A stretch of DNA of 64,000 nucleotides. Origin: Candidatus Parcubacteria bacterium (GTDB lineage: Bacteria; Patescibacteriota; Minisyncoccia; UBA6257; 2-01-FULL-56-20). The DNA is taken from assembly GCA_003599135.1 (NCBI GenBank), contig QZIV01000007.1, forward strand, positions 3,944 to 67,943. Reading direction: 5' to 3'. This document shows positions 11,208-56,606 of the stretch, one piece after another. Every line of letters begins with the position of its first letter. The stretch's first letter is position 1. The notes below the pieces were generated by a model. That model did no database searches. It had not been told where the DNA came from and saw nothing but the letters and a program-made list of their open reading frames with translations. The translations under genes and the position numbers were made by a program.

Positions 11208-12632
11208 ATGTTTCTCAAAGCATCCCGATTTTTTTTGTACCTTGCGCCGCTCTGCGTCGCGGTTGTGCTCGTGGGAACGTTTTTCCCATTCATCGGAGGG
11301 AAATATTTCTTCTTCCGTGTCGCGGTAGAGCTCTCGTTTATTTTCTTCGTTCTGTGGTGGGGATTTGGAGCAGCGGAAGGGGAGGTGTTCCGGAGAATGA
11401 AGTCGCTGTTTTCGAAACCCTTGGTGATCGCGGTTTCAGTGTTCGTTTTGGTTTTCCTTCTCGCGACGGTTTTCGCCGACAATCCTGGCGGGGCCTTCTG
11501 GTCTAATTACGAACGCGGCGACGGAGGGTTTCAGATGATTCACTATTACCTTTTCTTTTTACTCTCCGTCTTTCTTTTCAGGGAGTGGACTCATTGGCGG
11601 CTCCTGTTCCGAGTTTCTCTCGCGGCGGCGGCACTCATGATTCTTTACGGGCTATTTGGATACTTCGCAATCCTTTCGCCGAATCTTTTCTGTTCAGAAT
11701 CTTCCGGACCGCACCCAGTCCAGCAATGCATCAGTTTCATCACGCCGTACCAGGGGCAGGGGGCAACCATTCCCAAAACATTATGGGGGCTTTTCACGCA
11801 AAACCGATTCCAGGGATCTTTGGGAAATCCCGCGTACGTTGCTCCTTATCTAATGTTTTCGATGTTCTACGCTCTTTATCTCTGGGGACGGGAACGAGGA
11901 GGTCGCCAGTTAGTCCGAAACATTCTGTACGGATCTTCTCTTCTGGTATTTCTTTTCTTCTTTTTCATCAGTCAAACTAGAGGCGCCTTCCTCGGCTTGG
12001 GCGCCGCCATATTTTTCTTTTTTATTTATCTTGCTTTGGAGAAAAAAGAATGGCGCATAAAGATCGGAGCGACGGCCGCGATTCTCGTCGTTCTCACCTC
12101 AATCCTCGTTTACAACCGCAAGAGCGATTTCGTTACAAGTCTTCCCGGGGGTCGACTTTTCGATTTGTCGTTTTCGGAACAAACGGTGCAAACTCGTTTG
12201 TGGACGTGGGGATCGGCGTGGAAAGGATTTCTGGAGCGACCGATCTTGGGATGGGGGCCGGAGAATTTTAGCGCGGTTTTCGACAAGCATTTCGATCCAA
12301 GGCATTACGTTCCCGGGCAAAATACGGAAACTTGGTTCGATCGAGCCCACAGCGTCTTCTTCGATTATCTGGCGGAGACGGGTATTTTGGGAGCGCTAAG
12401 CTACCTTGCGATATTCATCATCTTTTACAGAGAATTTTTCCGTTTCCGTGGACGGTTGCTTGGAGAGAGAAACGCCGAGATTTCTCCTTCGCTGCTCCGA
12501 TCTTTTATATTTGCGCTTCCGATTGGTTATCTCGTGCAGGGCCTCGCTCTTTTCGACGTACTTCCCATCTACATCAACTTTTTTCTTTTCCTCGGTTTCG
12601 GCTCGTGGTTATTCTATAAAGAGGAAGCATGA
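11208..12632 (+). CDS. O-antigen ligase/polymerase family (Wzy_C-type) polytopic membrane protein
   Basis: Ten or more TM helices and the ISQTRGAFLGLG block resemble the O-antigen ligase signature. The start was chosen at the Met just after the rny stop. Confidence 0.6.
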   Translation: MFLKASRFFLYLAPLCVAVVLVGTFFPFIGGKYFFFRVAVELSFIFFVLWWGFGAAEGEVFRRMKSLFSKPLVIAVSVFVLVFLLATVFADNPGGAFWSNYERGDGGFQMIHYYLFFLLSVFLFREWTHWRLLFRVSLAAAALMILYGLFGYFAILSPNLFCSESSGPHPVQQCISFITPYQGQGATIPKTLWGLFTQNRFQGSLGNPAYVAPYLMFSMFYALYLWGRERGGRQLVRNILYGSSLLVFLFFFFISQTRGAFLGLGAAIFFFFIYLALEKKEWRIKIGATAAILVVLTSILVYNRKSDFVTSLPGGRLFDLSFSEQTVQTRLWTWGSAWKGFLERPILGWGPENFSAVFDKHFDPRHYVPGQNTETWFDRAHSVFFDYLAETGILGALSYLAIFIIFYREFFRFRGRLLGERNAEISPSLLRSFIFALPIGYLVQGLALFDVLPIYINFFLFLGFGSWLFYKEEA

Positions 12633-13261
12633 ACAAGACACTCAAAGGAGTAATCGCTGTTATTCTCTCTCTCATCACGCTGTGCGTGCTTTACTACGGT
12701 TCTTATCTGCCGTTTAAAAAATCACGCGCGTTTATCTCGACACTCCGAGAACTCGGAGCCGCAAAGTCGTTCCAGGAGTTTACGGAGAAGCTTTCGGTTC
12801 CGCTCGACATGCCCTCGCCCATCGGGCAGGAGGAGTTAGTGAGAAATGCGGGGAGCGCAGTTTTAAACATCGTAATCGGGAACGGCGCGAATAACCCCGC
12901 GCTTGTCGCGGCGGCCGTAAAGTACCTCGAAGACTACTACAGCCCCATCATCGAGAGTGGGAGCGGGATGAGTTTTGAGCAGAATCTTTACATCCTCGGT
13001 CTGGTCAATCAGGTTGCGTTCGAGCACACAAGGGATCCTCGGTATTTTGATGCCGCGAAACGCTATTACAGCCAGGGGCTGGCTCTTGGTCCCCGCCGAC
13101 CCCAGTTTTTGTACGGGATATTTGATATATACCGCGTTGAAGGAAACCTTGAGAAGGTCCGTGAAACGGCAAACCAGATCTTGGCGCAGTGGCCAGGGGA
13201 TGAAAAAATCCGGAAGTTTCTGGAAGAATTAGAAAAGGGTCAGGGTCAAAACACCGAGTAG
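12629..13261 (+). CDS. Hypothetical membrane-anchored helical protein
   Basis: The 210-aa ORF has an N-terminal TM helix and overlaps the upstream gene by 4 nt (ATGA). No recognizable motif. Confidence 0.45.
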
Positions 13262-13290
13262 GATCGACTTTCTGGAATTATAAGACGCGC

Positions 13291-14310
13291 ATGAAAAAAG
13301 CATTAATCACCGGCATTACTGGCCAAGACGGTTCGTATCTTGCGGAACTTCTCCTTCGGAAGGGGTACGAAGTGCACGGCGTCATGCGTCGGGCGTCAAC
13401 GTTCAACACGGGAAGAATCGATCACATCTACCAGGACCCGCATGAAGCGGGAAGACGCCTCGTGCTCCACTTCGGAGACTTGTCTGATGCGAACACAATC
13501 AGGAAACTTATTTACAAGATTCAGCCCGATGAGATCTACAATCTCGGAGCCCAATCCCACGTCCGCGTATCCTTCGACATTCCGGAATATACGGCGAACA
13601 TCACGGGGATAGGAGTTCTCCGAATTCTCGAGGCGATTAAAGATTACGAGGAACATACGGGTAAGAAAGTTAAATTCTACCAAGCCTCAAGTTCTGAGAT
13701 GTTCGGAGCGGCGCCCCCGCCGCAAAACGAGGAAACCAAGTTCTATCCGCGGAGTCCGTACGGAGTTGCGAAAGTTTTTGCGTTCGACACCGTGCGGAAC
13801 TACCGCGAGGCGTACGGTATTTTTGCGGTGAACGGGATTCTTTTTAACCACGAGTCAGAGCGTCGCGGGCAGACATTCCTCACAAGAAAAGTTACTCGCG
13901 GAGTCGCGCGGATCAAGGCAGGCCTCGACAAGAAAATCTATCTCGGCAACCTCGAAGCCAAAAGAGACTGGGGGTATGCCCCGGAATACGTCGAAGCAAT
14001 GTGGCTCATGCTCCAGCAAACCGAGCCGGATGATTTTGTGGCTGGGACCGGGAAAAGCCACACCGTTCGAGAGTTCGTTGAACTTGCGTTTCGGCACGCG
14101 GGATTGTCAAACTGGGAGGACTACGTTGGAGTGGATCCTCGGTACTATCGCCCGACCGAGGTTCAGCACCTAGTTGCTGATTCTCGGAAAGCGAAGGAGA
14201 AACTCGGCTGGGAAGCGAAAACCGATTTTGAGACGCTCGTAAAAATCATGCTGAAGCATGACCTCGAGGCGCACGGTCTCAAGGAAGACGCAGCGAACAT
14301 TAAGCTTTAA
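13291..14310 (+). CDS. gmd: GDP-mannose 4,6-dehydratase
   Basis: The start [29 protein letters not shown], the NLGAQSHV block and 339 aa give a classic Gmd signature. Confidence 0.9.
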
Positions 14311-14765
14311 TGGCACGAGAGCGGGTTATCGAGCGATCGCTCTATCGGCGGATTCTTGAAGTGATCCCGATACCCTGTGTCGACATGGTCATCATCCACG
14401 GCACGCGTTTTCTTCTTGGAAAACGGAAGAATAAACCTGCGCGGGGTAAGTGGTGGCTCATCGGAGGCCGAGTGTATAAGGGAGAACTTCTCCGCAACGC
14501 AGTGTCGCGGAAAGCGAAAGAAGAAGCGGGGCTTCGTGACATAAAAATCAAGAAGCTTATTGGCGCGCGGGAAACTATGTTCAAGAACAGCGCTCAGGGA
14601 CCTTCTGCTCACACTATCAATTCGGTATTCTTAGTGGAATCCAGATCGTCGCGCCACCTTCTGCCGAACGACAATCAAAATGTCGAACTTCGGTGGTTCT
14701 CTCGAGTAGACAAAAGATGGCCGCCATACGTAAAAGAAATGATCCGTCTGGCGGGGTTTAGATAG
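14310..14765 (+). CDS. Nudix hydrolase, GDP-mannose mannosyl hydrolase-like
   Basis: A Nudix box (GGRVYKGELLRNAVSRKAKEEAGL) is present. The start overlaps the gmd stop (TAATG), the same gmd-gmm context seen in colanic-acid clusters. Confidence 0.6.
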   Translation: MARERVIERSLYRRILEVIPIPCVDMVIIHGTRFLLGKRKNKPARGKWWLIGGRVYKGELLRNAVSRKAKEEAGLRDIKIKKLIGARETMFKNSAQGPSAHTINSVFLVESRSSRHLLPNDNQNVELRWFSRVDKRWPPYVKEMIRLAGFR

Positions 14766-14836
14766 AGATATAAACCCGGATCAGAGAAAATCTATTGATA
14801 GGGAAAGCCTGGTAGTGTTATGTTATTGGGGCATTG

Positions 14837-15760
14837 ATGAACCTTCGGAGCAAAAAGATTCTTGTCACGGGGGGTGCGGGGTTCTTGGGAAAGCATGTTG
14901 TCCGGAAACTCGTCGAACACGGAGTTCCGGAAGGCAATATTGCAGTACCTCAAGCAGAGGATTGCGATCTCCGCTTCGTCGAGAACTCCCGGCGCGCCGT
15001 CCGGGGGAACGACGTAGTCGTCCACCTCGCCGGAGTTACCGGAGGAATCGAATTTCACCGGCAACATCCCGCGAGCGTCTTTTACGATAACTTGATGATG
15101 GGCGTGCAGCTCATGGAAGCGGCGCGGGAAAAAGGAGTCGAAAAATTTGTCACCATCGGGAGCGCAACCGAGTACCCCGAACGAGCACCTCTCCCTTTTA
15201 AGGAGGAGACGCTCTGGGACGGGTTTCCGGAGAAACTGCACGCGCCGTACACAGTTGCGAAGAAGATGCTTCTTGTGCAGGCGCAAGCGTATCGGAAGCA
15301 GTACAACTTCAACGCTACTCATCTGCTTCTCACCAACATGTACGGCCCCGGAGAAAAGATTGAGGAAACCAGTTTTGTAATCCCGATGCTCATCAAGCGC
15401 ATCGGAGAGGCCAAGAAAACAGGAGCAAACTTCATCGACGTATGGGGCACCGGCAGGGCAACGCGTGATTTTCTCTATGTCGAGGACGCAGCGGAGGCCA
15501 TTTTTCTTGCCGCCGAGCGATATGACAAACCCGAACCGGTTAACATCGCCTCAGGGTGGGAGATCTCGATACAAGAGCTCGTGGAGCTCATCGCGAAACT
15601 CATGGGTTTCCAGGGCGAAATTCGATGGGATACCTCGAAGCCCGAAGGCCAGCTCCGCAGGATTCTCGATGCCTCGAAAGCCGAACGGGAATTTGGATTT
15701 CGTGCAAAGGTTGATTTTGAAACCGGATTGCAGAAGACGATTCATTCTCACGGGTATTGA
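14837..15760 (+). CDS. GDP-L-fucose synthase-like NAD(P)-dependent epimerase/reductase (paralog 1)
   Basis: It has a GGAGFLG Rossmann motif, Fcl-type length and a TNMYGPGE...FVIPMLIKRI block matching the Fcl NLYGP...SHVIPALL region. The ATG is 3 nt inside the track's TTG start. Confidence 0.6.
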   Translation: MNLRSKKILVTGGAGFLGKHVVRKLVEHGVPEGNIAVPQAEDCDLRFVENSRRAVRGNDVVVHLAGVTGGIEFHRQHPASVFYDNLMMGVQLMEAAREKGVEKFVTIGSATEYPERAPLPFKEETLWDGFPEKLHAPYTVAKKMLLVQAQAYRKQYNFNATHLLLTNMYGPGEKIEETSFVIPMLIKRIGEAKKTGANFIDVWGTGRATRDFLYVEDAAEAIFLAAERYDKPEPVNIASGWEISIQELVELIAKLMGFQGEIRWDTSKPEGQLRRILDASKAEREFGFRAKVDFETGLQKTIHSHGY

Positions 15761-16708
<948 letters not shown>

Positions 16709-16717: not shown

Positions 16718-17947
16718 ATGAAAATTGCGATTGTATGCAACAATCTCTCCTTTATTACTGGCGGGCCGCGGCTTGCTTTTGAACTGGCGAGGCATCTTGG
16801 CAAGCTTGGGCACACTGTTGTGATATACGCCCCGGATTCGGGGGGGGCGCATTTCAGCGATGTTCTCGGAGACCTCGACATCCGGGTAGTGGAAGCAAAG
16901 CCAACGGTGTCGAGATCGGGAGGTTTTTTGGGGTGGATTACCGCAAAAATTCGCGAGGAGCGCCGGGACGTGGAGCTCGCGAAGACCATTGCGAAGACAA
17001 TGGATGACGACTTTGATGTCGTGAACGTGCACGATATCGCGTATCGCACCGGCTACTTTTATAAAAAGAGGAATCCGAATGCGAAGGTGATATGGCAAGA
17101 GAACATCCCCCTATTTGTCTACGTGAAGAGAAGAAAAATCTTTCACGATATTGTGGGCGCGCTGTACTGGATTCTGAAGCGATTCATCGACCGGAAATAC
17201 TACGCCGCCATCGACGGCGTTTCCGTACTCGATAAACTTACAAAAAAACTCAGAGAAGATCGTGGCGGGAGGAACGTCCGCATCATCCGCGCCGGGATAG
17301 ATTTCGAGAAATTCTATGCCCCGGTCAAAAGTTTCCGGAGGAAGGCGGCGAAGAAAGAAGTGCATCTGCTTGCAGTGGGGGCGCTGAACGAAGCGCGCCG
17401 GTTCGACAATATCATCGAAGCAGTCCGGCTTCTCAGGGAGTGGGGATATAATGCGCGGGCGCTTATCGTGGCACACAACACGTGGCGCCAGGATAAGTGT
17501 CGGGACGATCTCATGGCACTCATAAAACGCTATCACCTCGAACCTTATGTAGTATTCCGATTCGATGGTATGCCCGAATTGGAACTTGTTGCGGCGTTCC
17601 AGGGAGCCGATATTTTCGTCCAGGCGGTATACGCCCCGCCGCCATCACACCAAGGCTGGGGGCTCGTGAACTTCGAGGCGATGTCGGCAGGGGTGCCGGT
17701 TGTCCTCATTAAGTCGTCTACCGCGGCGGAAGTGCTTGCGGATGGGGAAAATGTTTTTCTCTTCGAGCCTCTCCACCCCGAGCAGATCGCTGAGAAGATC
17801 AAGTTTCTGGTTGATTACCCCGAGATCTACGACAGCGCAGCGCGGACGGGTCAGGCTTTCGTGCGGGACAATTTGTCCTGGAGGAAGTTTGCCGAGGAGA
17901 TGCTCAGCTTTTTCGAGGATATTCGGCGTTTGCCGGAGAGGCGATAG
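16718..17947 (+). CDS. Glycosyltransferase family 4 (GT-B fold)
   Basis: The C-terminal E-x7-E region (GWGLVNFEAMSAGVPVV) is typical of GT4 retaining enzymes. Confidence 0.75.
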   Translation: MKIAIVCNNLSFITGGPRLAFELARHLGKLGHTVVIYAPDSGGAHFSDVLGDLDIRVVEAKPTVSRSGGFLGWITAKIREERRDVELAKTIAKTMDDDFDVVNVHDIAYRTGYFYKKRNPNAKVIWQENIPLFVYVKRRKIFHDIVGALYWILKRFIDRKYYAAIDGVSVLDKLTKKLREDRGGRNVRIIRAGIDFEKFYAPVKSFRRKAAKKEVHLLAVGALNEARRFDNIIEAVRLLREWGYNARALIVAHNTWRQDKCRDDLMALIKRYHLEPYVVFRFDGMPELELVAAFQGADIFVQAVYAPPPSHQGWGLVNFEAMSAGVPVVLIKSSTAAEVLADGENVFLFEPLHPEQIAEKIKFLVDYPEIYDSAARTGQAFVRDNLSWRKFAEEMLSFFEDIRRLPERR

Positions 17948-20408
17948 TGTTCCGGAGCGCCGGATATGCAAAGGAGCCGATTGCGCCGATGAGGCAGGCG
18001 AGAGAAACCGCAATGCTTGGCCAGAACCACCAGGGTTTGTATCGGAAGACGACTATGTGTTCGCCGCGCGGCAGAAAAACTCCGCGGAAAAGGACATTCG
18101 CTGGGTAAATAGAAGTTCTCTCGCCGTCGATATAAGCGTTCCAGCCGGAGTAGAACGTATCGGTCAAGACGAGTACGCCATCCCGGTCCGTTTCGCTTCG
18201 CAGTACAACCTCGTTTTCTTTGTATTCTAGGACAGTTGCTGCCACGAGGTTTTCCGTCGCGGCTCGCGGGACGAGAGAGAGAACGTTCTCATCTTCGAGG
18301 ATGACGCTCACGCGTGGATCGAACGACGGTTCGTAGAATATGCGTCGAGCTTCGGAGGGCGACGAGGCAGATCGAGTGTTAAATACCACATACGCCTTAG
18401 GAAGCACTCCGAGGTTCTCATAGATTCGAAGGTCGCGGTCGTAGATGAGGCGAAAGTCACGCGAGGCAGGGAGTTCTTGTTCCGATATGAGATATCGGAT
18501 GTTGTATGCGTCAAGAAAGTTCTTCGGGATTTCGGATAGCCGTGATGCGGGCCAAAGTCCGTCGATGGGATTTTCCTCGAGAATCGGTTGGGGGAGGAAT
18601 GAGAAGTATCTCTGTGGTTTAATAACAGAATTGTTTTGAGATCGTTGTATGCGGTAGACATCGCCGAGGTGTCCCGCAAAGACGTTCCCCACCGAAAACG
18701 TCCTCGCCACGCCTTTCTTGGAGTATTCACTTTGGAGGAATTGAACGTACGGGGGGGTTTGGGCATACGGATCAAGATAGCGGAAACCGTCCCGTACCTT
18801 CGGCATATAGAACCATAGTTCGAACGCGGTGAGGATGAGCAATGCATGCACTGCGTACCGCTGTTTCTTTTGTGCGAGAAAAAAGATGGCGAGCGCGAGG
18901 CCGCCGAAGAAGATTGCTTCGGCGAACAGTACAAGGGTGAGGTATTCGCCGTGATCTTGCATGATTCCCAAGACGAATTCTTGGAGAACGCGTGGCCAGC
19001 TTTCCGTGAGTGCGACAACTTTTTTGATCATTTCAGGCCTCCGGTTAAAGAAATCGAAATTCGGAACGTAGGTGGCGAGAAATGCGCTTTTGAAAAACGC
19101 ATATGCTCCTGCGAAAAGGACTGGGATCGTCGCAATGAGGGTGTAAAACTTTCGCCATCGTACGAGTTCTCCGCGCTCGCGTTCGCGAAGCATGTGTTCG
19201 AACGCGATTGAAGCGCAGATAACGATCGCGAGAGCCAGAGATCCGTACGCTTTATACCAGCCGATTTGTTGGAGAATAGGCAGCGTCCCTATCCAGTGCA
19301 CAATTGGGAAGCCGGCGTTTTTGAGGATGATGAATCCGATCCACGCATAGAGCGGGAAGAGTGGGAAAGGTTTTTTCTTAAGGAACAGGCTCACAAGGAA
19401 CAGGAGGATGACGCTCACACCGACGTAGGGGATAATCACTTCGTATCGGTCGAAAAGATGACCGCTCGCGGCAACTTCCGGCATCATCGTCGGAGTGATG
19501 AGGAAATGAAGAAGCTGTATCGGAGCGAAACTTGTTAATCCCTTACTCACCCACGCGGCAATGGTTCCGCCCTGCTTCCAATTGATGAGGAAATCAATAA
19601 TAAAAGGAGATGCAATCGCGCAGGCGACCGCAATAACTATCGTTGCGTGACCCACGAGTATCCACCAGTCTTTTCGTGAGGCGGTCTGCCTCGTCGCTTT
19701 CCACCCGAAGTAGAGTAAGAGGAAAAGGAACGCGATGATTGCCGATTGCGGTTGACCAACGAGAATAATAAAAGAGAACAAGATACCTATGAGCGCTGCT
19801 CGTGCAGCACTCCGTGTACGAAAGAAGTATTCGATTGAGAGGAGGGTCCACGGGAGCAGACTTTCTATGTCGAGGAAAGAGAATGTAAGATACAGCATCA
19901 AGTATCCGCAGAACATGTACGCGATGCCACCCCACAGGGCTACACTCTTTCGTAGGTCCAAGAACCGCAGATAGAGAAATGTGCCCAGCCCGGTGATGAA
20001 AAATCTGAGCAGAAAATACCAGTCGAATGCGCGCGTGGAGTCCCACAGAAAAGAAAAAATAAACCGCAAAGGATAATAAATATTTACGGGATTGTTCGGG
20101 ATCGGCGCCTCGCCGCCTCCGGAGTACGGAGTCCACAACGGCGGCACGCCTTTCTTTACCATCGCAATCTCGCTTTTAACGAGCGGAATGACATCAAGCG
20201 TATGCCACCCGCCGTCAACCTGCCACAGTGTCTTTACGTTTGGGTCGGGCGAGGGCTGCGAGTAGAACGTCGGCACCGCTTCAGTAAGAGACTGCCATCC
20301 GATCACCACGGGAAAGAAGAACAGGAGAATGATAAGCGCAAGCCAAAAACTTCCGTAGAGAAGGTCGAAGGAGAACAAAGTGCGAATGCGGTTAAGGAGA
20401 TATTGCAT
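17904..20408 (-). CDS. YfhO-like / GT-C type large polytopic membrane glycosyltransferase
   Basis: The 834-aa ORF has about 14 TM helices in the first ~530 aa and then a ~300-aa soluble C-terminal domain. It sits next to a GtrB-like GT2. Confidence 0.5.
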   Translation of the reverse strand: MQYLLNRIRTLFSFDLLYGSFWLALIILLFFFPVVIGWQSLTEAVPTFYSQPSPDPNVKTLWQVDGGWHTLDVIPLVKSEIAMVKKGVPPLWTPYSGGGEAPIPNNPVNIYYPLRFIFSFLWDSTRAFDWYFLLRFFITGLGTFLYLRFLDLRKSVALWGGIAYMFCGYLMLYLTFSFLDIESLLPWTLLSIEYFFRTRSAARAALIGILFSFIILVGQPQSAIIAFLFLLLYFGWKATRQTASRKDWWILVGHATIVIAVACAIASPFIIDFLINWKQGGTIAAWVSKGLTSFAPIQLLHFLITPTMMPEVAASGHLFDRYEVIIPYVGVSVILLFLVSLFLKKKPFPLFPLYAWIGFIILKNAGFPIVHWIGTLPILQQIGWYKAYGSLALAIVICASIAFEHMLRERERGELVRWRKFYTLIATIPVLFAGAYAFFKSAFLATYVPNFDFFNRRPEMIKKVVALTESWPRVLQEFVLGIMQDHGEYLTLVLFAEAIFFGGLALAIFFLAQKKQRYAVHALLILTAFELWFYMPKVRDGFRYLDPYAQTPPYVQFLQSEYSKKGVARTFSVGNVFAGHLGDVYRIQRSQNNSVIKPQRYFSFLPQPILEENPIDGLWPASRLSEIPKNFLDAYNIRYLISEQELPASRDFRLIYDRDLRIYENLGVLPKAYVVFNTRSASSPSEARRIFYEPSFDPRVSVILEDENVLSLVPRAATENLVAATVLEYKENEVVLRSETDRDGVLVLTDTFYSGWNAYIDGERTSIYPANVLFRGVFLPRGEHIVVFRYKPWWFWPSIAVSLACLIGAIGSFAYPALRNTIASPANAEYPRKS

Positions 20409-21182: not shown

Positions 21183-21225
21183 AGAGAACAATGGTTAGTA
21201 TAGCAACGAAACTATCGCGAGCAAA

Positions 21226-45779: not shown

Positions 45780-45785
45780 AAAAGA

Positions 45786-46394: not shown

Positions 46395-46397
46395 CGC

Positions 46398-49036: not shown

Positions 49037-49867
49037 ATGACCGGAAAACCGAAAGTTTCTGTTCTTCTTGCGACTTGGAATCGCGCCGGGATGATTTCGC
49101 GCACGATTGAGAGCGTGCGGAATCAGGCGTTCAAGGATTGGGAGCTCGTGATTACGGACGACGGCTCGACCGATGATACGCCGAGTGTTGCGAGGGATTG
49201 GCAGAAAAAAGAGCCGAGGATCGTCTACGTACGAAGTGAGGTAAACCAGGGTATCTCGAAAAACTACAACCAAGGATTCCGCGCGGCGAAGGGGGAGTAT
49301 GTTGCGATGATTGACGACGACGATCCGTGGATTACCCCGGAGAAGCTTGCGAAACAAGTCAGATTTCTCGACGAGCACCCCGACTACGTCGGTTGCGGCG
49401 GAGGGGTAATCGTTGTCGATGACAAAGGAAAAAACATGTACCGATATTTCAAACCCGAAACCGATCGAGAAATCAGAAAGTACATGCTTTTTTCAAACCC
49501 GATGGCGAACTCGACGACGATGTTCCGCTTCGACGTCGCGAAAAAAATCGGTCTCTACGACGAGTCAAACCGCTACGCCGGCGACCGTGATTTTTGGATG
49601 AAGATGGGACTCGAGGGGAAGCTCTATAACTTCCAAGAATATTTCTCCCATTACACGATGGGAGACCAGAACACCTCGATCCTCCGCATGCGCCCGCATC
49701 TCAAGTCATCGCTCACCTTTATGAAGCGTTATCGAGACAAGTATCCGTATTATCCTCTGGCGCTCGTCTTCAACACCGTGCAGTACTGGTACTCGTTTCT
49801 TCCCTTGGCGGTGAAACGCCCTATCCACGCACTGTTGGCTCGCTTGAAACGTCTCGTCGTAAAATAA
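49037..49867 (+). CDS. Glycosyltransferase family 2
   Basis: VSVLLATWNRAGMI, ITDDGSTDDT and DDDD motifs. The ATG at 49037 is preferred over the track's GTG at 48995. Confidence 0.75.
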   Translation: MTGKPKVSVLLATWNRAGMISRTIESVRNQAFKDWELVITDDGSTDDTPSVARDWQKKEPRIVYVRSEVNQGISKNYNQGFRAAKGEYVAMIDDDDPWITPEKLAKQVRFLDEHPDYVGCGGGVIVVDDKGKNMYRYFKPETDREIRKYMLFSNPMANSTTMFRFDVAKKIGLYDESNRYAGDRDFWMKMGLEGKLYNFQEYFSHYTMGDQNTSILRMRPHLKSSLTFMKRYRDKYPYYPLALVFNTVQYWYSFLPLAVKRPIHALLARLKRLVVK

Positions 49868-51323
49868 GGAACAGTTCGCGAAGCAGGGGATCCCGAAGTT
49901 TGAGGAGTAACGAGAGATATGCGATAGCTGCAATCGCCACGATTGCTACGAAGTGCAGGTGAAGCGCGGCGAAAAGTGCCGTGAGGATTCCCACGCCGAG
50001 AGTCGCGAACACCGCGATTTTAAGGTGAGGGAGTACCTCGAATTGGATCAAGCTTCGCGCGGTATGCCATAGATACACGTTGCTTACGAACTGGGCGATA
50101 AGTGTAGCAACGGAGGACCCCGCGATGCCGAAGCGGGGGATGAGGAGAAAGTCCAGGAGAACATTCAGTCCGCCACCGATCGCGGCATACACGATAAGGT
50201 TCTTCTGGCGGTCGTAGGCCACAAGAGCGGAGCTTAATATCACGGCAGGAAAATCAATGAGGATGGTAAGAAGAAGTACTTGGAACGCAATCGTCCCCGG
50301 TGAGAAACTCTCGCCGAAAAGGCCTGCCATAATCGGTTGTCCCAGAATAATTCCCCCGACTGCGGCAGGTAACGCGATTATGAATACGAGACTCACAACT
50401 CGCTCAAGCGCTTCGCGCATTTTGATAGGATCTTTCACGGCGAGGCGCGCGAATGCGGGCAAGGCGCTTGCCGCAACGATACTTGGGATGATGTAGAGAA
50501 GCTGAATGATGCGGTTCGCAGCGGAATAAATACCGACATCCGTTGCGGATTTGAGCCAGCCGATGACGAGTATGTCGGTGTTGATCATAAACATTCCAAG
50601 AAGGCTCGAGATAGCGAACGGCCAACAGGCGCCGAGTATCGGTTTGATGAGGGATGGGTTGAAGTAGGTAAAGACTTTTTTAAAACTGTCGCGGAGAGCG
50701 TAGAACGTTGCCATCATTCCAATTCCGGTTCCTATCGCATACGCGTATGAGAACGACTCTACGGTCCGAGAAAATTGGAGGAACGCAAGGCCGAACGCGA
50801 CAATCCCGAGGTTCGTGAGGAAATACAGGCCCGCCTCCCGCTCCATCTTCTCTGTTGCCTGGATAATTGAGAATCCGAACTGACGAAGTGTGTCGAAGAC
50901 GAGAATGGCGGCAACAATCGGAAAGATCGTTTTTGCCGCAGAGAGCGTGGTAAATCGGGGGACTATAAAGAGCACGATTGCAACCCCGATGACTAGAAGA
51001 CCTAGTTTTAGGAAAAACGAGGTCGAAGTGATTTCAAGGCGCCGCTGTTTTTCGGGAGTTCGCGCTGCTTCCCGGATGAGAATTGCGTTGATGCCGAAGT
51101 CGATAAAGAGCGTGAGTACCGCCACGATGGTTATCGCGTACGAAAATATTCCCCACTGTTCGGCGCCGAGCACTCTTGCGGCATAGATAATAACAATGGC
51201 GCGAAGGAGCCTTCCCCCGACGTTTGAGACCGTGAGCCAAAACGTGTTTTTCGCAACCGTCTGTCGAGTCGTCCGGTTTGTGAGAAGAAATTCCTTTATT
51301 TTCTTAAACATTCGTTTTATCAT
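49821..51323 (-). CDS. wzx: Wzx-type oligosaccharide flippase (MOP/PST superfamily)
   Basis: About 12-14 TM helices and an N-terminal TNRTTRQTVAKNTFWL...IARVLGAEQWG region typical of PST flippases. The start was chosen at Met-100 of the track ORF (MIKRMFKK). Confidence 0.7.
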   Translation of the reverse strand: MIKRMFKKIKEFLLTNRTTRQTVAKNTFWLTVSNVGGRLLRAIVIIYAARVLGAEQWGIFSYAITIVAVLTLFIDFGINAILIREAARTPEKQRRLEITSTSFFLKLGLLVIGVAIVLFIVPRFTTLSAAKTIFPIVAAILVFDTLRQFGFSIIQATEKMEREAGLYFLTNLGIVAFGLAFLQFSRTVESFSYAYAIGTGIGMMATFYALRDSFKKVFTYFNPSLIKPILGACWPFAISSLLGMFMINTDILVIGWLKSATDVGIYSAANRIIQLLYIIPSIVAASALPAFARLAVKDPIKMREALERVVSLVFIIALPAAVGGIILGQPIMAGLFGESFSPGTIAFQVLLLTILIDFPAVILSSALVAYDRQKNLIVYAAIGGGLNVLLDFLLIPRFGIAGSSVATLIAQFVSNVYLWHTARSLIQFEVLPHLKIAVFATLGVGILTALFAALHLHFVAIVAIAAIAYLSLLLKLRDPLLRELFLILRRDVSSEPTVRG

Positions 51324-51365
51324 ATCAGTACCTCGTACGATGTGTAAAATGTTCGCTATCACAGC

Positions 51366-51863
51366 ATGAGAACAAAAAGGGATTTCAAAAAGAAAAGGAA
51401 AAAAGTTGTTGTCGCGGTAAGCGGCGGGTTCGATCCTATTCACGTGGGGCATGTGCGCCTCTTTGAGGCAGCGAAGCGTCTCGGAGACATTCTCGTTGTG
51501 ATTTTGAATAACGACAACTGGCTTAGGAAGAAAAAGAGTCACGTTTTTATGCCGCAAGAAGAGCGGAAGGAGATCATCGAGGGCCTTCGGGCAGTTGACG
51601 GGGTAGTCCTCACGGCTCACCGGCCCAATCCGGCCGATATGAGCGTTTGCCGCGAGCTTCGGAAAATCAAACCGGACGTTTTTGCGCAGGGGGGCGATCG
51701 GAACACGGCTAACATCCCGCCCTGCGAGGTTGAGCTCCAGAGAGATCTCGGATTCCGGATAGTTGAGAACGTCGGCCGAGGAGGAAAGGTTCAGTCAAGC
51801 TCCTGGCTTCTCAGAAAGTATTCCGAGACCGTTTCGAAACGGCGTTCGTCCGGGAAGGCCTAA
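51366..51863 (+). CDS. Cytidylyltransferase-like nucleotidyltransferase (TagD / HldE domain II-like)
   Basis: VSGGFDPIHVGHVRLFEAAKRLGD, an HxGH-type motif of the cytidylyltransferase superfamily, in 165 aa. Confidence 0.55.
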   Translation: MRTKRDFKKKRKKVVVAVSGGFDPIHVGHVRLFEAAKRLGDILVVILNNDNWLRKKKSHVFMPQEERKEIIEGLRAVDGVVLTAHRPNPADMSVCRELRKIKPDVFAQGGDRNTANIPPCEVELQRDLGFRIVENVGRGGKVQSSSWLLRKYSETVSKRRSSGKA

Positions 51864-51865
51864 CC

Positions 51866-52768
51866 TTACCGGGTTATCGCCTCGAGAATTCCTTTACTGA
51901 GACTGACTTTTGGGATCCAACCTAAAGCTTTTCGAGCTCGATTGGCATCAAGCGTTATGTGTTCGACTTCTCCCTCTCGTCGTGGAGCGTAAACGGGAGA
52001 TTGCTTGAACCCTAGGTTTTTTGCGACTTCTTCAAATACCTCCTGATCGCTCGTGTTTTTTCCCGAACCGATGTTATAAATTTCTCTGTTGCCTTTTGAG
52101 AGAGCCTTGAGAGTTGCGCGTGCGACGTCACTTACGTGCACATAATCTCGCGTTTTACTTCCATCCCCGAAAATGGTCGGGCGTTTCTCTCTCCGCATAA
52201 GGCTGGCGAACACCGACACGACCCCCGCTTTCTGCCTCGATCCATATACGTTTGCGTAGCGAAGGATCGTATAGTCGAGCTTATCGACTGTTCCGTGAAA
52301 TCGTACGGCTTCTTCTCCCATGAGTTTTGAAAGGGCGTAAGGGGAAAGCGGGTTGGGAGCAGCATTTTCTTTTACGGGTAGGAGTTTTGGATTCCCGTAA
52401 ATGGAGCCACCGCTCGAGGCGAAGATAATTTTTTTCCGTTTTTCTTTGGACTCTCTGAACGCCACGAGGACGTTTATAGTTCCCAGAACGTTGACGTTGA
52501 ACGTGGGGATCGGATTTCGCATGGATTCGGCTACGTGAACGAGCGCCGCATAATGGCTTACAACGCGGGGACGTTCTTTCTTAAAAATCTTTTTGATGGC
52601 CGTAAGACTTCGGACATCCGCCCGGTAAAACTTCGCTCGAGGATCGAGATTTTTGCGGGAGCCCGTGGAGAGATTGTCGACGACAACAACGCGGTGACCT
52701 GCTCGGAGATAGGCGTCGACAACATGGGAACCGATGAATCCTGCTCCCCCTGTTACTAAAATTTTCAC
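51866..52768 (-). CDS. NAD-dependent epimerase (UDP-hexose 4-epimerase-like)
   Basis: ILVTGGAGFIGSH, YxxxK (YALSK) and ~300 aa (short GalE/WcaG-like). Confidence 0.7.
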   Translation of the reverse strand: MKILVTGGAGFIGSHVVDAYLRAGHRVVVVDNLSTGSRKNLDPRAKFYRADVRSLTAIKKIFKKERPRVVSHYAALVHVAESMRNPIPTFNVNVLGTINVLVAFRESKEKRKKIIFASSGGSIYGNPKLLPVKENAAPNPLSPYALSKLMGEEAVRFHGTVDKLDYTILRYANVYGSRQKAGVVSVFASLMRREKRPTIFGDGSKTRDYVHVSDVARATLKALSKGNREIYNIGSGKNTSDQEVFEEVAKNLGFKQSPVYAPRREGEVEHITLDANRARKALGWIPKVSLSKGILEAITR

Positions 52769-54102
52769 GTTTGATTCACGAAAAACGACTTGAGTGTTTT
52801 GAGAAAAATAGAGATATCGAGTACGACGGAACGGTTTTTTAAGTAATAAATGTCGTGCTGGAGTTTTTCGTACGCATCTTCAACCGATGCTCCGTAGCGA
52901 TAGTTGATTTGAGCCCATCCAGTCACCCCTGGCTTTACGAGATGGCGGATGTCGTAGTAGGGGATTTTCTCTTCGAGGAGTTTTACGAACTCCGGGCGTT
53001 CCGGCCTCGGACCCACAAAAGAAAGCTCATTCTTTATTATGTTAATCAATTGCGGGAGTTCATCGAGGTGGGTGTAGCGCAAGAATCGCCCGAAAGGAGT
53101 TGCTCGCGCGTCATTTGGATCGGCCCATTGAGCCCCGTTTTTTTCGGCATTCATATCCATGGTCCGGAATTTGTAGAGCATGAAACTCCGCCCGCCTCTC
53201 CCGACACGTTCTTGTTTGTAAACTGCCGGCCCGGGGGAAGCGATTTTGACTCCGAGCGCGATGAGAATTTCGAGAGGGAGGAGAGCGATGAAGAGAAAGA
53301 AGGCGATGACGAATTCCAGAGCTCGCTTGAGTTGGTCATAAAACTTTTGCTGTCCGACGAGGTTTTCGAGAAACCACGCTTCCTCAAGGTCGGCGAGGGG
53401 GATTTTTCTAAACACGACTTCGTAGAAATTCGGGAGATCTCGGGCTTCCACTCCGTGGCTCAAGAGTCCATAGAGAGCGCCGGTGAGCCGAGTATCTTTC
53501 TTAAGGTGTCTCGGTATGACGATGAGGTTGATGCCGTGTTCTTTGACGAGTGCGTGAAGATTTGCTTTCCGGGTGTTCGCCGAGTCCTCCTTGAGCCACG
53601 CTTTTATTTCATAGCCAAGCTGGGGATTGAGATTCACGGCGCGCACAACCTCTTCGGCAGTAGGGCCGTTTCCGATGAGAAGGACTTTGTTCGGCGGCTC
53701 GCTCGATCCGATATGTGAATTGAAAAATCGCCGCCATAGGGTTTCGATGACCGCGAAGATGATGATGAAGAGAAACAAGTTTCTCCGAGGGGCGATTCCG
53801 AAGGTCGGGATGAGGTAAAAGAGCGTAATAGTGAGTAAGCCGTTCGTAAAGAGCGCAAGCCACAGCGTTTTTATAAAGTCGATGCCGTTGCGGAGACGCC
53901 GGAGATCGTAAAGGCCGGCAACATAGAAGACAACGACCCAGATGCCGAAAATGACGGTGAACGGCGTTGCATGTGTTTCCGTGAATCCGCGGTACGCATC
54001 GTCTCCGTACCGGATAAATAGGGCGGCAAAAAGAGAGAGATACAACGCCGCAACGTCTCCAGTGAAAAGCACAAGCAACCTTATTTTACTTTGATGCTGC
54101 AT
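52765..54102 (-). CDS. Polyprenyl-phosphate sugar phosphotransferase (WbaP/CpsE-like initiating enzyme)
   Basis: Four N-terminal TM helices and a C-terminal bacterial sugar-transferase domain with LDELPQLINIIKNELSFVGPRPERPEF. Confidence 0.85.
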   Translation of the reverse strand: MQHQSKIRLLVLFTGDVAALYLSLFAALFIRYGDDAYRGFTETHATPFTVIFGIWVVVFYVAGLYDLRRLRNGIDFIKTLWLALFTNGLLTITLFYLIPTFGIAPRRNLFLFIIIFAVIETLWRRFFNSHIGSSEPPNKVLLIGNGPTAEEVVRAVNLNPQLGYEIKAWLKEDSANTRKANLHALVKEHGINLIVIPRHLKKDTRLTGALYGLLSHGVEARDLPNFYEVVFRKIPLADLEEAWFLENLVGQQKFYDQLKRALEFVIAFFLFIALLPLEILIALGVKIASPGPAVYKQERVGRGGRSFMLYKFRTMDMNAEKNGAQWADPNDARATPFGRFLRYTHLDELPQLINIIKNELSFVGPRPERPEFVKLLEEKIPYYDIRHLVKPGVTGWAQINYRYGASVEDAYEKLQHDIYYLKNRSVVLDISIFLKTLKSFFVNQT

Positions 54103-55285
54103 TTCCGGTTTTGTATTTTTTCAATCCTATCGTGCTTTCATAAAAAGACAAGAGTTGGTTAGTGGTGTTCTCTATAGAGTACTCCCGCGCCTTCTCAAGT
54201 GCCTCGAGGTGTTTCTTCTGCCGCAACCGATCGCTTCCGAGAAGTTCGCTTACGCTATGAACGAACGACTCCGTGTTATTTACCATAACTCCTCCGCGGT
54301 TTTTACCGAGCACGTCTTCTACTCCCATTCCCTGTAAGGCGACGACAGGCAAGCCCATCGCCATCGCTTCGAGTATAACAAGGCCCTGTGTTTCTGTAAG
54401 CGACCCGAAGACGAAGATGGAAGCCGCCTTGTAAATCGCAAGAAGTTTTGCTTGGTGTAAAAACCCAAGAAAGATGACGTCCCGACCGATACCGAGTTTT
54501 TGAGTTTTGCTTTCGAGGCGGCCGCGTTCCGGTCCGTCTCCCGCGATGAGGAGTTTTACCGAAGAATGTTTTTTTCGGAGAACGGCAAAGGACTCAATAA
54601 TAAAATCTAGATTCTTTTCTTTGCCAAGTCTGCCTGTGGTTATGAGGAACGGTGCGCCTGGGGCAATCCCGAAGGCTTTTAAAATCGATTCTGGATCTTC
54701 TTGCGCCGCGAGCGCGCGTATCTTTTCCGTACTTACGCCAGTTGGGATTACGGCAATTGGAGTCGCGATACCGTAGCCCTCCAATTTTTCTTTCATTCCG
54801 TGAGACGGGACGACGACGCCGTCATGTTTCGGAACGAACTTTCGCGTTCCCCATATGACGAGTTTCTTGAGTAATTGGGCAGGAAGAAAGGGGACATAGT
54901 GAACGTACTCTTCGAAGAACGTGTGATAGGTATGCACCAGAGGTATGTGGAACTTTTTCCCGACGTGGATGCCCCACAAGCCGAGCGTGGAAGGCGTCTG
55001 GGTATGGATGATGTCGAGTGAAAGCTCAGGGATCATCGCCGTCGAGAAAAAGGGGAGAACCAATCTTGTCTGCTTATCGAAACCGAAGCGGACGGAGGGG
55101 AACTGCCAGATGCCCTCCGAGGGGTTGTGAGTGGAATGAATACTGTGGTTTGGAGCGAAAATAGAGACGAGATGACCTCTTCTTCGGAATTCCGAAGCGA
55201 ATGAGGTGAGAGAAGTGACGACGCCGTTTATCTCGGGCGTGTAGGTATCCGTGAAAATCCCGATATTCATCTCACGACTCTCCAC
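54086..55285 (-). CDS. Glycosyltransferase family 4 (GT-B)
   Basis: Contains the E-x7-E region LEAMAMGLPVVA. Confidence 0.75.
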   Translation of the reverse strand: MESREMNIGIFTDTYTPEINGVVTSLTSFASEFRRRGHLVSIFAPNHSIHSTHNPSEGIWQFPSVRFGFDKQTRLVLPFFSTAMIPELSLDIIHTQTPSTLGLWGIHVGKKFHIPLVHTYHTFFEEYVHYVPFLPAQLLKKLVIWGTRKFVPKHDGVVVPSHGMKEKLEGYGIATPIAVIPTGVSTEKIRALAAQEDPESILKAFGIAPGAPFLITTGRLGKEKNLDFIIESFAVLRKKHSSVKLLIAGDGPERGRLESKTQKLGIGRDVIFLGFLHQAKLLAIYKAASIFVFGSLTETQGLVILEAMAMGLPVVALQGMGVEDVLGKNRGGVMVNNTESFVHSVSELLGSDRLRQKKHLEALEKAREYSIENTTNQLLSFYESTIGLKKYKTGNAASK

Positions 55286-55989
55286 TTTTTAAACGGCGAC
55301 TTGCCGAAAATGAAAACACAGACCCCGCTTACAATCCACTGGAACAGTAATTTCATCCAGCCGGTTGCGCGGGCTCTTCTTCCGCTATGCAAAACACAGA
55401 GAGACGTCTCGACGAGTGTCCGCCCGATTCGCGAGAGTCTATAGAAAAGATCGTTATCCTCCCCCGTTACCAAATCTTCGCGGTATCCGCGGACATTCTT
55501 GAACGCGGCGGCTCGTACGGCCTGGAACTCGCCTGAAGCGTTCCCGACGCGGAGCACGTTGTTCGAGAATACATAGAGTCCGTTTAAGAGTCCGAAAATG
55601 ATTTTGTCTCCGAAGGTTTCAGCTTCTGGGCGTACGCGTATCGGTACTGTAAGCGCCGCTAGTCGTTGGTTAGACTGGAACATTTCCGCTAACTTGCGGA
55701 AAAACTTTTCTGTATCCGGAATCTCAACGTCCGCGTCTATAAATACCAAGAGGTCGCCGCGAGCCTCCGCGGCTCCAAGATTTTTTCCGCGAGCGATATT
55801 CTTTTTTTCCGGCTCCGGGTCAACGACGATCCGGTCCGCGAAGGGTTTTGCCAGTTCGACCGTCTTATCAGAACTTTTTCCGTCGGACACGATGATCTCG
55901 TGCCCGAGTTTTCGGAGCGGCTGGAGACGCCGAAGTGTCTCTTCGATGACCTTTTCTTCGTTCAGGGTGGGAACAATGATCGAGATCAT
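55267..55989 (-). CDS. Glycosyltransferase family 2
   Basis: Contains ISIIVPTLNEEKVI, VSDGKSSDKT and DADV motifs. Confidence 0.75.
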   Translation of the reverse strand: MISIIVPTLNEEKVIEETLRRLQPLRKLGHEIIVSDGKSSDKTVELAKPFADRIVVDPEPEKKNIARGKNLGAAEARGDLLVFIDADVEIPDTEKFFRKLAEMFQSNQRLAALTVPIRVRPEAETFGDKIIFGLLNGLYVFSNNVLRVGNASGEFQAVRAAAFKNVRGYREDLVTGEDNDLFYRLSRIGRTLVETSLCVLHSGRRARATGWMKLLFQWIVSGVCVFIFGKSPFKKWRVVR

Positions 55990-56606
55990 AGTCTTCGCTC
56001 CAAATCTTTTTTCTTGAGGTATCGGCTTATTCCCCAGAATGCTGCGGCGACAATGATAACGAAGGCGATAAGCGATGCAGTCTGCAGTCCCTCGTTGATC
56101 ACGAGATAAAGATTCCCGAAGGAGTACCCTATAAACATAAGAAAGCCGGTCCAGAAAAACTGCCCAACCGCGTTGAAAGCGAGATATTTTTTAAAAGGGA
56201 CCTTCGCTATTCCCGCGGTGATAAGAATGACAAGCGCGAATCCGAGCCCCATCGTGATTTTGGAGAGAAAAAGGATTTTATTTTGATGCTTGTGAAACGC
56301 AGCCTCTGTTTTTAAAACGAGCTCCTCGGTGATGTTGAAATAGCGGCCGTATTTTTTGACAAGGGGGTGGGCGCCGAAGTACCCCACAGCGTACCAGATG
56401 GCGTCGGCGGCAAGATCACCTGCCATAAGAGTAAGGTAGAGGGGCCAGAACTCGAAGTGACCGAGTTTCAAGAAAAATCCGGAGATGGTCATAATCACCG
56501 GCCCCTCGACGATAGCAAGGACAAACGTGAGAACATATTTGTACGGCAAGAGCCACAGAAGGAAAGAAGGAGCCCCGATCATGAATGCCCTCATTATACC
56601 CGACAT
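55986..56606 (-). CDS. DedA-family membrane protein
   Basis: About 200 aa with a TM core and the characteristic G..KF..F...L.G glycine-rich block. Confidence 0.6.
   Translation of the reverse strand: MSGIMRAFMIGAPSFLLWLLPYKYVLTFVLAIVEGPVIMTISGFFLKLGHFEFWPLYLTLMAGDLAADAIWYAVGYFGAHPLVKKYGRYFNITEELVLKTEAAFHKHQNKILFLSKITMGLGFALVILITAGIAKVPFKKYLAFNAVGQFFWTGFLMFIGYSFGNLYLVINEGLQTASLIAFVIIVAAAFWGISRYLKKKDLERRL

Follow-up and report, generated by a model that had tools for sequence, protein, structure and literature searches.

Among described systems, the closest to the locus reported here are the Wzx/Wzy O-antigen and exopolysaccharide clusters of Salmonella and Escherichia coli (rfb and the colanic acid cluster wca), whose position on the chromosome is fixed while their gene set varies. 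Also comparable are the S-layer glycan (slg) clusters of Aneurinibacillus, Geobacillus and Paenibacillus, organisms in which a Wzy_C-family transferase O-glycosylates the S-layer protein; the Wzy_C Pfam family includes ligases as well as polymerases, and the locus described below likewise has Wzy_C proteins. For WaaL and PglS, an O-oligosaccharyltransferase, it has been proposed that arginines bind the pyrophosphate while a histidine serves as the base (PMC12800693). Here we analysed a 64,000-nt stretch of the Parcubacteria contig QZIV01000007.1 (the window; all coordinates are positions in it, in forward-strand numbering) and describe a locus at 11208-56606. Its gene content and its conservation among relatives suggest that it is probably a Wzx/Wzy-dependent biosynthesis locus for a surface heteroglycan of Liptonbacteria-type Parcubacteria.

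Members of the Candidate Phyla Radiation (CPR, or Patescibacteria) are regarded as organisms that live on other microbes, attached to them, and that have shed much biosynthetic capacity; to our knowledge, how they recognize hosts and evade phages is largely unknown. Patescibacteria have been stated in general terms to encode many glycosyltransferases and surface modifications, and their phages to carry O-antigen nucleotide-sugar genes (PMC12911398). Their glycans receive hardly any mention in reviews and recent experimental papers: glycan terms are absent from the text of a 2024 CPR perspective, and a study of Saccharibacteria pili called CPR glycosylation processes "unexplored". A literature search found no published description of a glycan locus anchored at rny with conserved ends in Liptonbacteria or Parcubacteria.

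Every long open reading frame (ORF) from 11.2 to 56.6 kb was translated and searched with the Pfam and NCBIfam models, with start codons refined afterwards; family results below refer to these scans. From the ATG of the gene for Wzy_C protein 1 (11208) to a DedA/VTT gene (56606), 46 genes occupy 45,399 bp at 97.8% coding density, with a largest intergenic gap of 190 bp, and are arranged in eight strand blocks. Families of sugar-nucleotide enzymes, glycosyltransferases, lipid-carrier or glycan-export proteins, or their usual companion enzymes and transporters, account for 45 of the 46; the sole gene without a family (28513-29376) has a predicted model of a GT-A glycosyltransferase. The original prediction had described one contiguous glycan island of about 45 kb running from the gene after rny to dedA, and the searches support nearly every one of its gene calls. 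On the left the locus is flanked by housekeeping genes for tRNA synthetases, RNase J, tRNA-Leu, a solute-binding protein, iPGM and RNase Y (rny), and on the right by genes for a DsbA-like lipoprotein, a CxxC protein, a glutaredoxin-like protein, TrxB, GroEL, DHFR, ThyA and HtpX. A repeat search of the window found no long repeats, only short motif-level matches between paralogues, so collapse of the assembly is less likely. An Rfam scan detected tRNA-Leu only, with no riboswitch or other RNA within the locus.

To place the locus in its lineage, we took the best 80 rny loci from a species-representative genome collection and probed them by tblastn with the window proteins (individual loci are cited by L number). 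All 80 belonged to Patescibacteria/Parcubacteria metagenome-assembled genomes (MAGs), and Candidatus Liptonbacteria were among the best at about 70% identity; by sequence relationship, the host belongs to the Liptonbacteria type of Parcubacteria. The YfhO-like, orphan and TPR proteins of the locus each have a 100% identical NCBI protein assigned to a Parcubacteria bacterium. Among the 66 loci with at least 2.5 kb downstream of rny, 44 had an orthologue of Wzy_C protein 1, of its tetratricopeptide repeat (TPR) partner, or of both directly after rny, and 40 had both. This head was present in 38 of the 51 loci with at least 6 kb; 28 of those add Gmd and 24 an Fcl-like gene. Identity of rny was 65-75% in loci with the head and 61-67% in loci without it, and the latter include loci labelled Harrison-, Wolfe- or Colwellbacteria. 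From about 5 kb downstream of rny onwards, gene content varied between genomes. Modules of the window were found singly: a run of short-chain dehydrogenase/reductase (SDR), phosphoglucose/phosphomannose isomerase (PGI), dehydrogenase (ADH) and nucleotidyltransferase-like (NT) genes in L041, the heptose module in L044 (recurring in L081 and L082), Gmd with the C-methyltransferase in L021, and a CgeB-like glycosyltransferase in L011 and in L018. Wzx lies just 8 kb after rny in L029, and L038 carries only Wzy_C protein 1 and the TPR protein, after which come the genes for dihydroorotate dehydrogenase, a PAP2 protein and the DsbA-like protein. Scanning metagenomes with the polyprenyl-phosphate glycosyl-1-phosphate transferase (PGT) recovered the other end. 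In L081, and partly in L082, L084, L085 and L088, the tail runs in the order heptose genes, GT2, Wzx, CTP-transferase-like, GalE-like, PGT, two glycosyltransferases, DedA, DsbA-like, TrxB and GroEL. The locus is found at a fixed chromosomal site between rny and the dsbA-like/trxB/groEL block, its ends conserved and its middle mosaic.

Full locus length was measured or closely bounded in three relatives, and, where both ends are placed, sizes lie between about 3 kb (in L038, which has only the head) and about 46 kb. Contig Ga0265292_1000306 (80,390 bp), compared in two parts that lie 12 kb apart, one of them L089, bears both ends, with rny at contig positions 6007-7470, Wzy_C protein 1 from 7498 and the end of DedA at 53164, giving a locus of 45.7 kb compared with 45.4 kb in the window. 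Most of its flank genes are 72-85% identical to ours (51-62% for the DsbA-like and DHFR genes), as are nine head genes at 56-83% and most tail genes at 47-75%; DedA and the two glycosyltransferases beside the PGT are only 25-30% identical, and the middle differs in content, including a gene for a protein like the RuBisCO large subunit. Contig k141_115735 of ERZ4903072 is syntenic with the window middle at 49-83% identity. It shares the order SDR, PGI, ADH, NT, GDPD, NT, orphan, GatZ-like, cupin, Fcl-like, two SDRs, C-methyltransferase, GT4 and CgeB-like, interrupted by insertions of methyltransferases, a NUDIX gene and a DegT aminotransferase. Because gene order is backed by these independent assemblies, mis-assembly or a split island is less likely. 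Among relatives, large contigs or complete chromosomes are 827,485, 840,672 and 913,682 bp long, and the locus would be about 5.0-5.5% of a genome of that size. The island had been called unusually large; this stands relative to the genome, but at least one relative has a locus of equal size.

The assembly machinery was as originally predicted, with an initiating phosphotransferase, a flippase and two Wzy/WaaL-like polytopic proteins each matching their families (Table 1). There is only one PGT and only one Wzx in the 45 kb; NCBIfam Wzx-type models match the latter weakly. Each of the two Wzy_C proteins has about 12-13 hydrophobic segments; a comparison between them detected no similarity (E=0.19). 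A profile built from 25 orthologues of Wzy_C protein 1 matched WaaL (PDB 7tpg, E=3e-9) and the oligosaccharyltransferase entry 9rmk (E=9e-7), both modest E-values; the profile was needed, as a single-sequence PDB search gave no match. The invariant T264-R265-G266 of protein 1 aligns with TRGA of WaaL, and the invariant A387-H388 aligns with AH of WaaL and SH of 9rmk. No PglL_A or Wzy_C_2 domain match was found in protein 1. A metagenome scan with Wzy_C protein 2 found no relative, which fits a highly variable polymerase. For the TPR partner, 57 homologues were found, 186-269 residues long and without any fused domain; in its predicted model (pLDDT 93) a single long N-terminal helix leads into a TPR superhelix. 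Among the 46 scanned ORFs there was no match to an ABC transporter, a chain-length regulator (PCP/Wzz), the Wza exporter, an LCP ligase, an aminotransferase or an acyltransferase. PCP/Wzz and Wza are not universal in monoderm or O-glycosylation systems.

The nucleotide-sugar genes agreed with the original prediction to differing degrees. Its GDP-6-deoxyhexose branch is present: Gmd scores above its equivalog cut-off and is accompanied by a NUDIX gene and by three Fcl-like proteins, which score 205-285 bits, all below the cut-off of 500; the tandem Fcl-like pair is conserved in relatives. The two methyltransferases were also recovered, one of the FkbM family and one a sugar C-methyltransferase. 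A GDP-heptose pathway is suggested at the family level only, since the four adjacent genes (44757-47688) belong to the right families but all fall under their equivalog cut-offs. The proposed dTDP-6-deoxyhexose branch was reduced to a lone RmlB-like NDP-hexose dehydratase, as no locus ORF gave an RmlA or RmlD equivalog or a Pfam match to a dTDP-sugar isomerase (RmlC). A cytidylyl/adenylyltransferase-like gene (51366-51863), overlooked in the earlier work, lies between the Wzx and GalE-like genes on the opposite strand; it matches TIGR02199 (75 bits) and TIGR01518 (52 bits), both below cut-off, and its product is 59-63% identical at the same spot in L081, L082 and L029.

In the middle of the locus lies a cassette of PGI, ADH, NT, GDPD, NT, orphan, GatZ-like and cupin genes. 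Its NT-GDPD-NT module is conserved in L089, L092 and L093, and the pair of GatZ-like and cupin genes is kept in L093 at 63% identity; a single-sequence PDB search with the GatZ-like protein gave no match. The orphan protein has no Pfam, NCBIfam or PDB sequence match and only 23 homologues, all at 41% identity or above, in a collection of 5.8 billion proteins. AlphaFold, given the homologue alignment, returned a model with pLDDT 88 and pTM 0.88, and an H-D-Y-D motif is invariant in the family; on this predicted fold we read the protein as a glycosyltransferase whose sequence family has not been described before. The relative L092 holds two paralogues of it. The polyol-phosphate branch of the original prediction corresponds to this conserved cassette, for which polyol-phosphate is only one possible product. 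Compared with CDP-polyol routes of the TarI/TarJ type, a Zn-dependent ADH is present, both NT proteins resemble sugar-1-phosphate enzymes (PDB 4evw), and the TagD/RfaE-II-like gene scores below cut-off; no TagF or LicD match was found in the locus ORFs. Two features of relatives are also recorded. In L092, the NT-GDPD cassette contains an 86-residue ORF with a GIY-YIG domain (3202-3462, minus strand), perhaps an element of the homing-endonuclease kind, which hints at how cassettes could be mobilized. In L089, the 401-residue RuBisCO-large-subunit-like protein (3345-4550 of L089, minus strand) is encoded directly before the NT-GDPD-NT-orphan module; its best match, type III RuBisCO, reaches only 148 bits against a cut-off of 497, and such a protein is unusual inside a glycan cluster.

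About ten glycosyltransferases of the GT2, GT4 or CgeB-like type had been anticipated, and nine were found by family (three GT4, four GT2 and two CgeB-like Glyco_trans_1_2 proteins); the cytoplasmic glycosyltransferase candidates number ten. The predicted YfhO-like enzyme passed its Pfam cut-off by a narrow margin, with a match that covers only the C-terminal 80 residues, and homologues at 54-62% identity are all annotated with PF09586; it is probably an extracytoplasmic transferase of the GT-C type. A single-sequence PDB search with it gave one non-significant match (E=0.063). The adjoining GT2 gene (20430-21191) has the same orientation, and its product has no hydrophobic segments. Heading this operon is a gene for a Gfo/Idh/MocA-DAO oxidoreductase fusion, for which no counterpart was found beside the YfhO-like gene in the two relatives examined (L089 and L092). 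Because the locus has no aminotransferase, the usual route from 3-keto to 3-amino sugars is inapplicable to the fusion protein.

Table 1. The 46 genes of the glycan locus, with window positions, strand and supporting evidence
Feature	Position	Strand	Evidence
Wzy_C protein 1, WaaL/PglL-like ligase candidate	11208-12632	+	Wzy_C 72.8 bits
Membrane-anchored TPR protein, conserved partner of Wzy_C protein 1	12629-13261	+	Homologues and predicted model
Gmd	13291-14310	+	TIGR01472 514.6 bits, above equivalog cut-off 415
NUDIX, GDP-mannose mannosyl hydrolase-like	14310-14765	+	NUDIX 56 bits; NF011963 55.5, below cut-off
Two tandem GDP-L-fucose-synthase-like (Fcl-like) SDR epimerase/reductases	14834-15760, 15767-16708	+	NF047922 227 and 285 bits, cut-off 500
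GT4 glycosyltransferase (a)	16718-17947	+	Glycos_transf_1 75.7 bits; 70% identical in L089
YfhO-like polytopic protein	17904-20408	-	PF09586 29.0 bits, cut-off 28.5; ~10 hydrophobic segments
GT2, polyprenyl-phosphate sugar synthase-like	20430-21191	-	Glycos_transf_2 82.5 bits; best NCBIfam ArnC, AglJ, PpgS, all below cut-off
Gfo/Idh/MocA sugar-nucleotide 3-dehydrogenase-like and FAD (DAO) oxidoreductase fusion	21226-23220	-	Pfam; NF040723 (UDP-GlcNAc 3-dehydrogenase) 84 bits, below cut-off; best PDB 7bvj
FkbM-family methyltransferase	23223-24146	+	TIGR01444 95.3 bits, above cut-off 37.7
Bifunctional PGI	24153-25124	+	TIGR02128 226.2 bits, above cut-off 213.9
Zn-dependent medium-chain dehydrogenase (ADH)	25180-26232	+	ADH_N, ADH_zinc_N; 81-83% identical in L041 and L093
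NT, first	26229-26954	+	Pfam; best PDB 4evw
GDPD phosphodiesterase	26947-27714	+	Pfam
NT, second	27730-28476	+	Pfam; best PDB 4evw
Orphan-family protein, predicted GT-A glycosyltransferase fold	28513-29376	+	AlphaFold model
GatZ/KbaZ-like protein	29429-30589	+	Weak Pfam match, 32.6 bits
Mannose-6-P-isomerase-type cupin	30582-31067	+	Weak Pfam match, 38.3 bits
Short-chain dehydrogenase	31161-31898	+	adh_short 90 bits
Third Fcl-like reductase	31943-32905	+	NCBIfam scan
Two SDR epimerase/reductase-like proteins	~32910-33692, 33661-34665	+	Family scans, starts chosen
NDP-sugar C-methyltransferase, three-domain	34658-35944	+	Methyltransf_13, _23, _14; Methyltransf_14 160.6 bits
GT4 glycosyltransferase (b)	35960-37162	+	Pfam scan
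Short epimerase-like protein	37168-37941	+	NCBIfam/Pfam scans
RmlB-like NDP-hexose 4,6-dehydratase	38117-39172	+	TIGR01181 330.8 bits, below cut-off 365.1
GT2 glycosyltransferase (b)	39159-40064	+	Pfam scan
CgeB-like Glyco_trans_1_2 protein, first	40061-41068	+	Pfam scan
Wzy_C protein 2, candidate repeat-unit polymerase (Wzy)	41050-42537	+	Wzy_C 46.6 bits, ~13 hydrophobic segments
CgeB-like Glyco_trans_1_2 glycosyltransferase, second	42534-43577	+	110.7 bits
Heptose module, SDR epimerase/dehydratase-like	43610-44716	+	Family scans
Heptose module, HddA-like kinase	44757-45779	+	157 bits, equivalog cut-off 600
Heptose module, GmhA-like isomerase	45786-46394	+	101 bits, equivalog cut-off 276
Heptose module, GmhB-like phosphatase	46398-46961	+	164 bits, equivalog cut-off 178
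Heptose module, HddC-like nucleotidyltransferase	46951-47688	+	76 bits, equivalog cut-off 300
Beta-phosphoglucomutase-family HAD protein	47692-48414	-	Family scans
Half-size EamA/DMT protein, four transmembrane segments (4-TM)	48427-48846	-	Family scans, hydrophobic-segment count
GT2 glycosyltransferase (c)	49037-49867	+	Glycos_transf_2 125.6 bits
Wzx/MOP-family flippase	49821-51323	-	Polysacc_synt (PF01943) 127.2 bits, PF13440 84.4; 65% identical in L081
Cytidylyl/adenylyltransferase-like, 165 residues (RfaE domain II/TagD-like)	51366-51863	+	PF01467 (CTP_transf_like) 54.6 bits
GalE-like NDP-sugar 4-epimerase	51866-52768	-	TIGR01179 211.8 bits, below cut-off 262.3
PGT, WbaP/WcaJ type	52765-54102	-	Bac_transf (PF02397) 212 bits; TIGR03025 352.6, above cut-off 295.55
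GT4 glycosyltransferase (c)	54086-55270	-	Best match alpha-monoglucosyl-diacylglycerol synthase, NF049988 178.6 bits, below cut-off 400
GT2 (d)	55267-55989	-	Pfam/NCBIfam scans
DedA/VTT protein, nearest UptA (undecaprenyl-phosphate transporter)	55986-56606	-	VTT_dom 47.4 bits; NF052604 65, below cut-off 250

The genes for the following scheme are present in the locus, and we infer the function of each step from family membership. GDP-6-deoxyhexoses would be made from GDP-mannose by Gmd and the three Fcl-like reductases, with the C-methyltransferase and the FkbM protein giving methylated sugars. The GmhA-, HddA-, GmhB- and HddC-like proteins, together with a modifying SDR, would provide a sugar of the GDP-heptose type, the RmlB-like dehydratase a further NDP-6-deoxyhexose, and the PGI-to-cupin cassette an activated sugar or polyol. 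The PGT would begin the repeat unit on polyprenyl phosphate, probably with a sugar supplied by the adjoining GalE-like epimerase, and up to ten cytoplasmic glycosyltransferases would lengthen it. Wzx would then flip the repeat unit over the membrane, where the variable Wzy_C protein 2 may polymerize it, and Wzy_C protein 1, conserved across the lineage, would work with the membrane TPR protein to move the glycan to an acceptor at the cell surface. Outside the membrane, the GT2 at 20430-21191 and the YfhO-like protein, possibly with the small EamA protein, may attach side-branch sugars, and the DedA protein may recycle the carrier lipid.

The acceptor could be the cell wall, a glycolipid, or a protein such as a pilin or S-layer protein. 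A protein acceptor is attractive for two reasons: proteins are the usual ligands of TPR domains, and pili, whose glycosylation has so far only been predicted, are abundant on CPR cells.

Several points weigh against a single Wzx/Wzy-dependent pathway of this kind. All product functions come from sequence or predicted structure, and most enzymes score below NCBIfam equivalog cut-offs, so the sugar identities are guesses. No phosphomannomutase and no clear GDP-mannose pyrophosphorylase was identified in the locus, and the window has no candidate acceptor gene. The YfhO assignment depends on a marginal Pfam score. Polymerases usually track repeat-unit structure and ligases are conserved; because of this, and from the profile matches, protein 2 was given the role of polymerase and protein 1 that of ligase, so that both putative roles derive from conservation pattern and profile matches. 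Finally, the locus may encode more than one product.

This last point leads to a reading that we consider somewhat unlikely, in which several independent glycan systems lie side by side. An O-glycosylation or ligase module (Wzy_C protein 1, TPR protein and GDP-fucose genes) would adjoin a Wzx/Wzy exopolysaccharide tail, with a teichoic-acid-like phospho-polyol middle. The eight strand blocks are in keeping with this, as are the different combinations of modules in relatives (head only in L038, head and tail in L029, head and part of the cassette in L041), and four nucleotidyltransferase-like genes, the GDPD gene and the TagD-like gene hint at a phospho-substituent. However, no second initiating enzyme, ABC exporter or TagF-type polymerase was found in the 45 kb, and head and tail are linked on one contig of a relative at 62-83% protein identity. 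Because there is a single PGT and a single Wzx, we favour one lipid-linked pathway plus decorations.

We think it quite unlikely that the product is a lipid-anchored lipoglycan. Such a molecule would resemble pneumococcal type IV lipoteichoic acid, with repeat units assembled on polyprenyl-PP and flipped, then Wzy-like polymerization and WaaL-like ligation to a glycolipid made by the GT4 protein (c). The best NCBIfam match of that protein does point to glycolipid synthesis, the scanned ORFs include no LCP wall-ligase match, and a ligase-like Wzy_C protein, a GDPD gene and cytidylyltransferase-like genes are all present. Nevertheless, the GT4 score is below cut-off and the gene is not conserved, its positional counterpart in L081 being 28% identical; no family match of the LicD, TarI/J or TacL type was found among the locus ORFs; and both NT proteins are closer to sugar-1-phosphate enzymes than to the IspD/TarI types.

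Base composition bears on whether the locus is native. GC content is 0.507 in the locus and 0.534 in the flanks, GC at third codon positions 0.575 and 0.637, and the codon-usage L1 distance between them is 0.22, above all 500 random gene splits (mean 0.122 ± 0.016, maximum 0.182); this shift is mild. A chimeric assembly, or a recent transfer of the locus from an unrelated phylum, would account for it but is very improbable: the difference is small, and the flanks consist of housekeeping genes with high expression; neither long repeats nor tRNA-adjacent signs of integration nor integrase or transposase matches in the locus ORFs were found; dozens of related MAGs, obtained from other samples, show head and tail in synteny with the housekeeping flanks; and the nearest homologues of the YfhO-like, orphan GT-A and TPR proteins lie on similar contigs, after which identity drops sharply. 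Other candidates were set aside more simply. The CPR host clade and the lack of Wzz, Wza or lipid A genes in the window speak against a lipopolysaccharide O-antigen, the lack of an ABC exporter gene in the locus against an ABC-transporter-dependent route, and the lack of a CpsC/D-type match against a capsule with tyrosine-kinase control.

The flanks contain some further features. Upstream of trxB, two small genes at 57435-58164 (plus strand) encode proteins of 58 and 78 residues. The first has a CxxC-x17-CxxC arrangement (TIGR04272 30.9 bits, below the cut-off of 36) and the second is glutaredoxin-like of the YruB type (89.2 bits, above the cut-off of 88.55); together with the genes for TrxB and the DsbA-like lipoprotein, these two make up a small thiol-redox cluster adjoining the glycan locus. 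On the left, a 120-residue membrane protein of the Phage_holin_4_2 family (7595-7957, minus strand) is encoded between the solute-binding protein and iPGM genes. Because it is kept at that position in most relatives, at 33-58% identity, it is probably a resident membrane protein and not a prophage remnant. A 242-residue ORF at 1848-2576 (minus strand) has no Pfam or NCBIfam match and a GC content of 0.573, the second highest in the window.

The site and assembly genes of this 45 kb locus are conserved while its middle is mosaic, in about 5% of the genome, and this points to strong selection on the diversity of surface sugars. In a more far-reaching proposal, which we hold to be unlikely, it would be a serotype-like locus between rny and dsbA/trxB/groEL. 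The conserved WaaL/PglL-like transferase and its TPR partner would attach strain-variable glycans to pili or an S-layer and so set host-attachment and phage specificity in these ultra-small episymbionts, and the cassette would be a lineage-restricted pathway for an undescribed sugar or polyol. The ligase-TPR pair, the orphan GT-A family and the cassette are targets for study by heterologous expression, lectin or antibody probes and the typing of CPR populations in metagenomes.

With the rfb and wca clusters the locus shares a PGT of the WbaP/WcaJ type, a MOP flippase, a Wzy_C polymerase candidate, a WaaL-like ligase candidate and many GT2 and GT4 proteins, and with wca also the GDP-fucose genes, including a Gmm-like NUDIX gene. 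It differs from them in its CPR host, in having no outer-membrane or lipid A genes in the window and no Wzz/PCP or Wza found, in the position of the ligase candidate inside the locus beside a membrane TPR protein, and in its share of the genome. The slg clusters and the heptose modules of Campylobacter capsules resemble it in genes of the GDP-D-glycero-D-manno-heptose type, GDP-6-deoxyhexose genes and methyltransferases; unlike them, the window has no S-layer gene or ABC exporter, its heptose enzymes fall under equivalog cut-offs, and Wzx/Wzy take the place of the ABC/Kps export of Campylobacter. The profile of Wzy_C protein 1 allies it to PglL/PglS/TfpO and WaaL (the Wzy_C/RfaL superfamily), with the Arg of TRG and the His of AH aligned, whereas it has no PglL_A/Wzy_C_2 domain match, its E-values are modest, and a separate TPR partner replaces the C-terminal domain. 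As in three-component wall-polymer glycosylation of the CsbB/GtrB and YfhO/GtrC type, a co-oriented GT2 gene stands beside that of a large polytopic YfhO-family protein, with a small 4-TM transporter-like gene elsewhere in the locus; however, the YfhO score is marginal, the GT2 lacks C-terminal membrane helices, the Gfo/DAO fusion heads the operon and the GtrA family is absent. The machinery is conventional, and it extends known biology to a new host group with no new mechanism; what goes beyond routine annotation is the share of a genome of about 0.85 Mb, the architecture resembling a serotype locus of a pathogen, the ligase-TPR pair, the orphan GT-A family and the conserved cassette.

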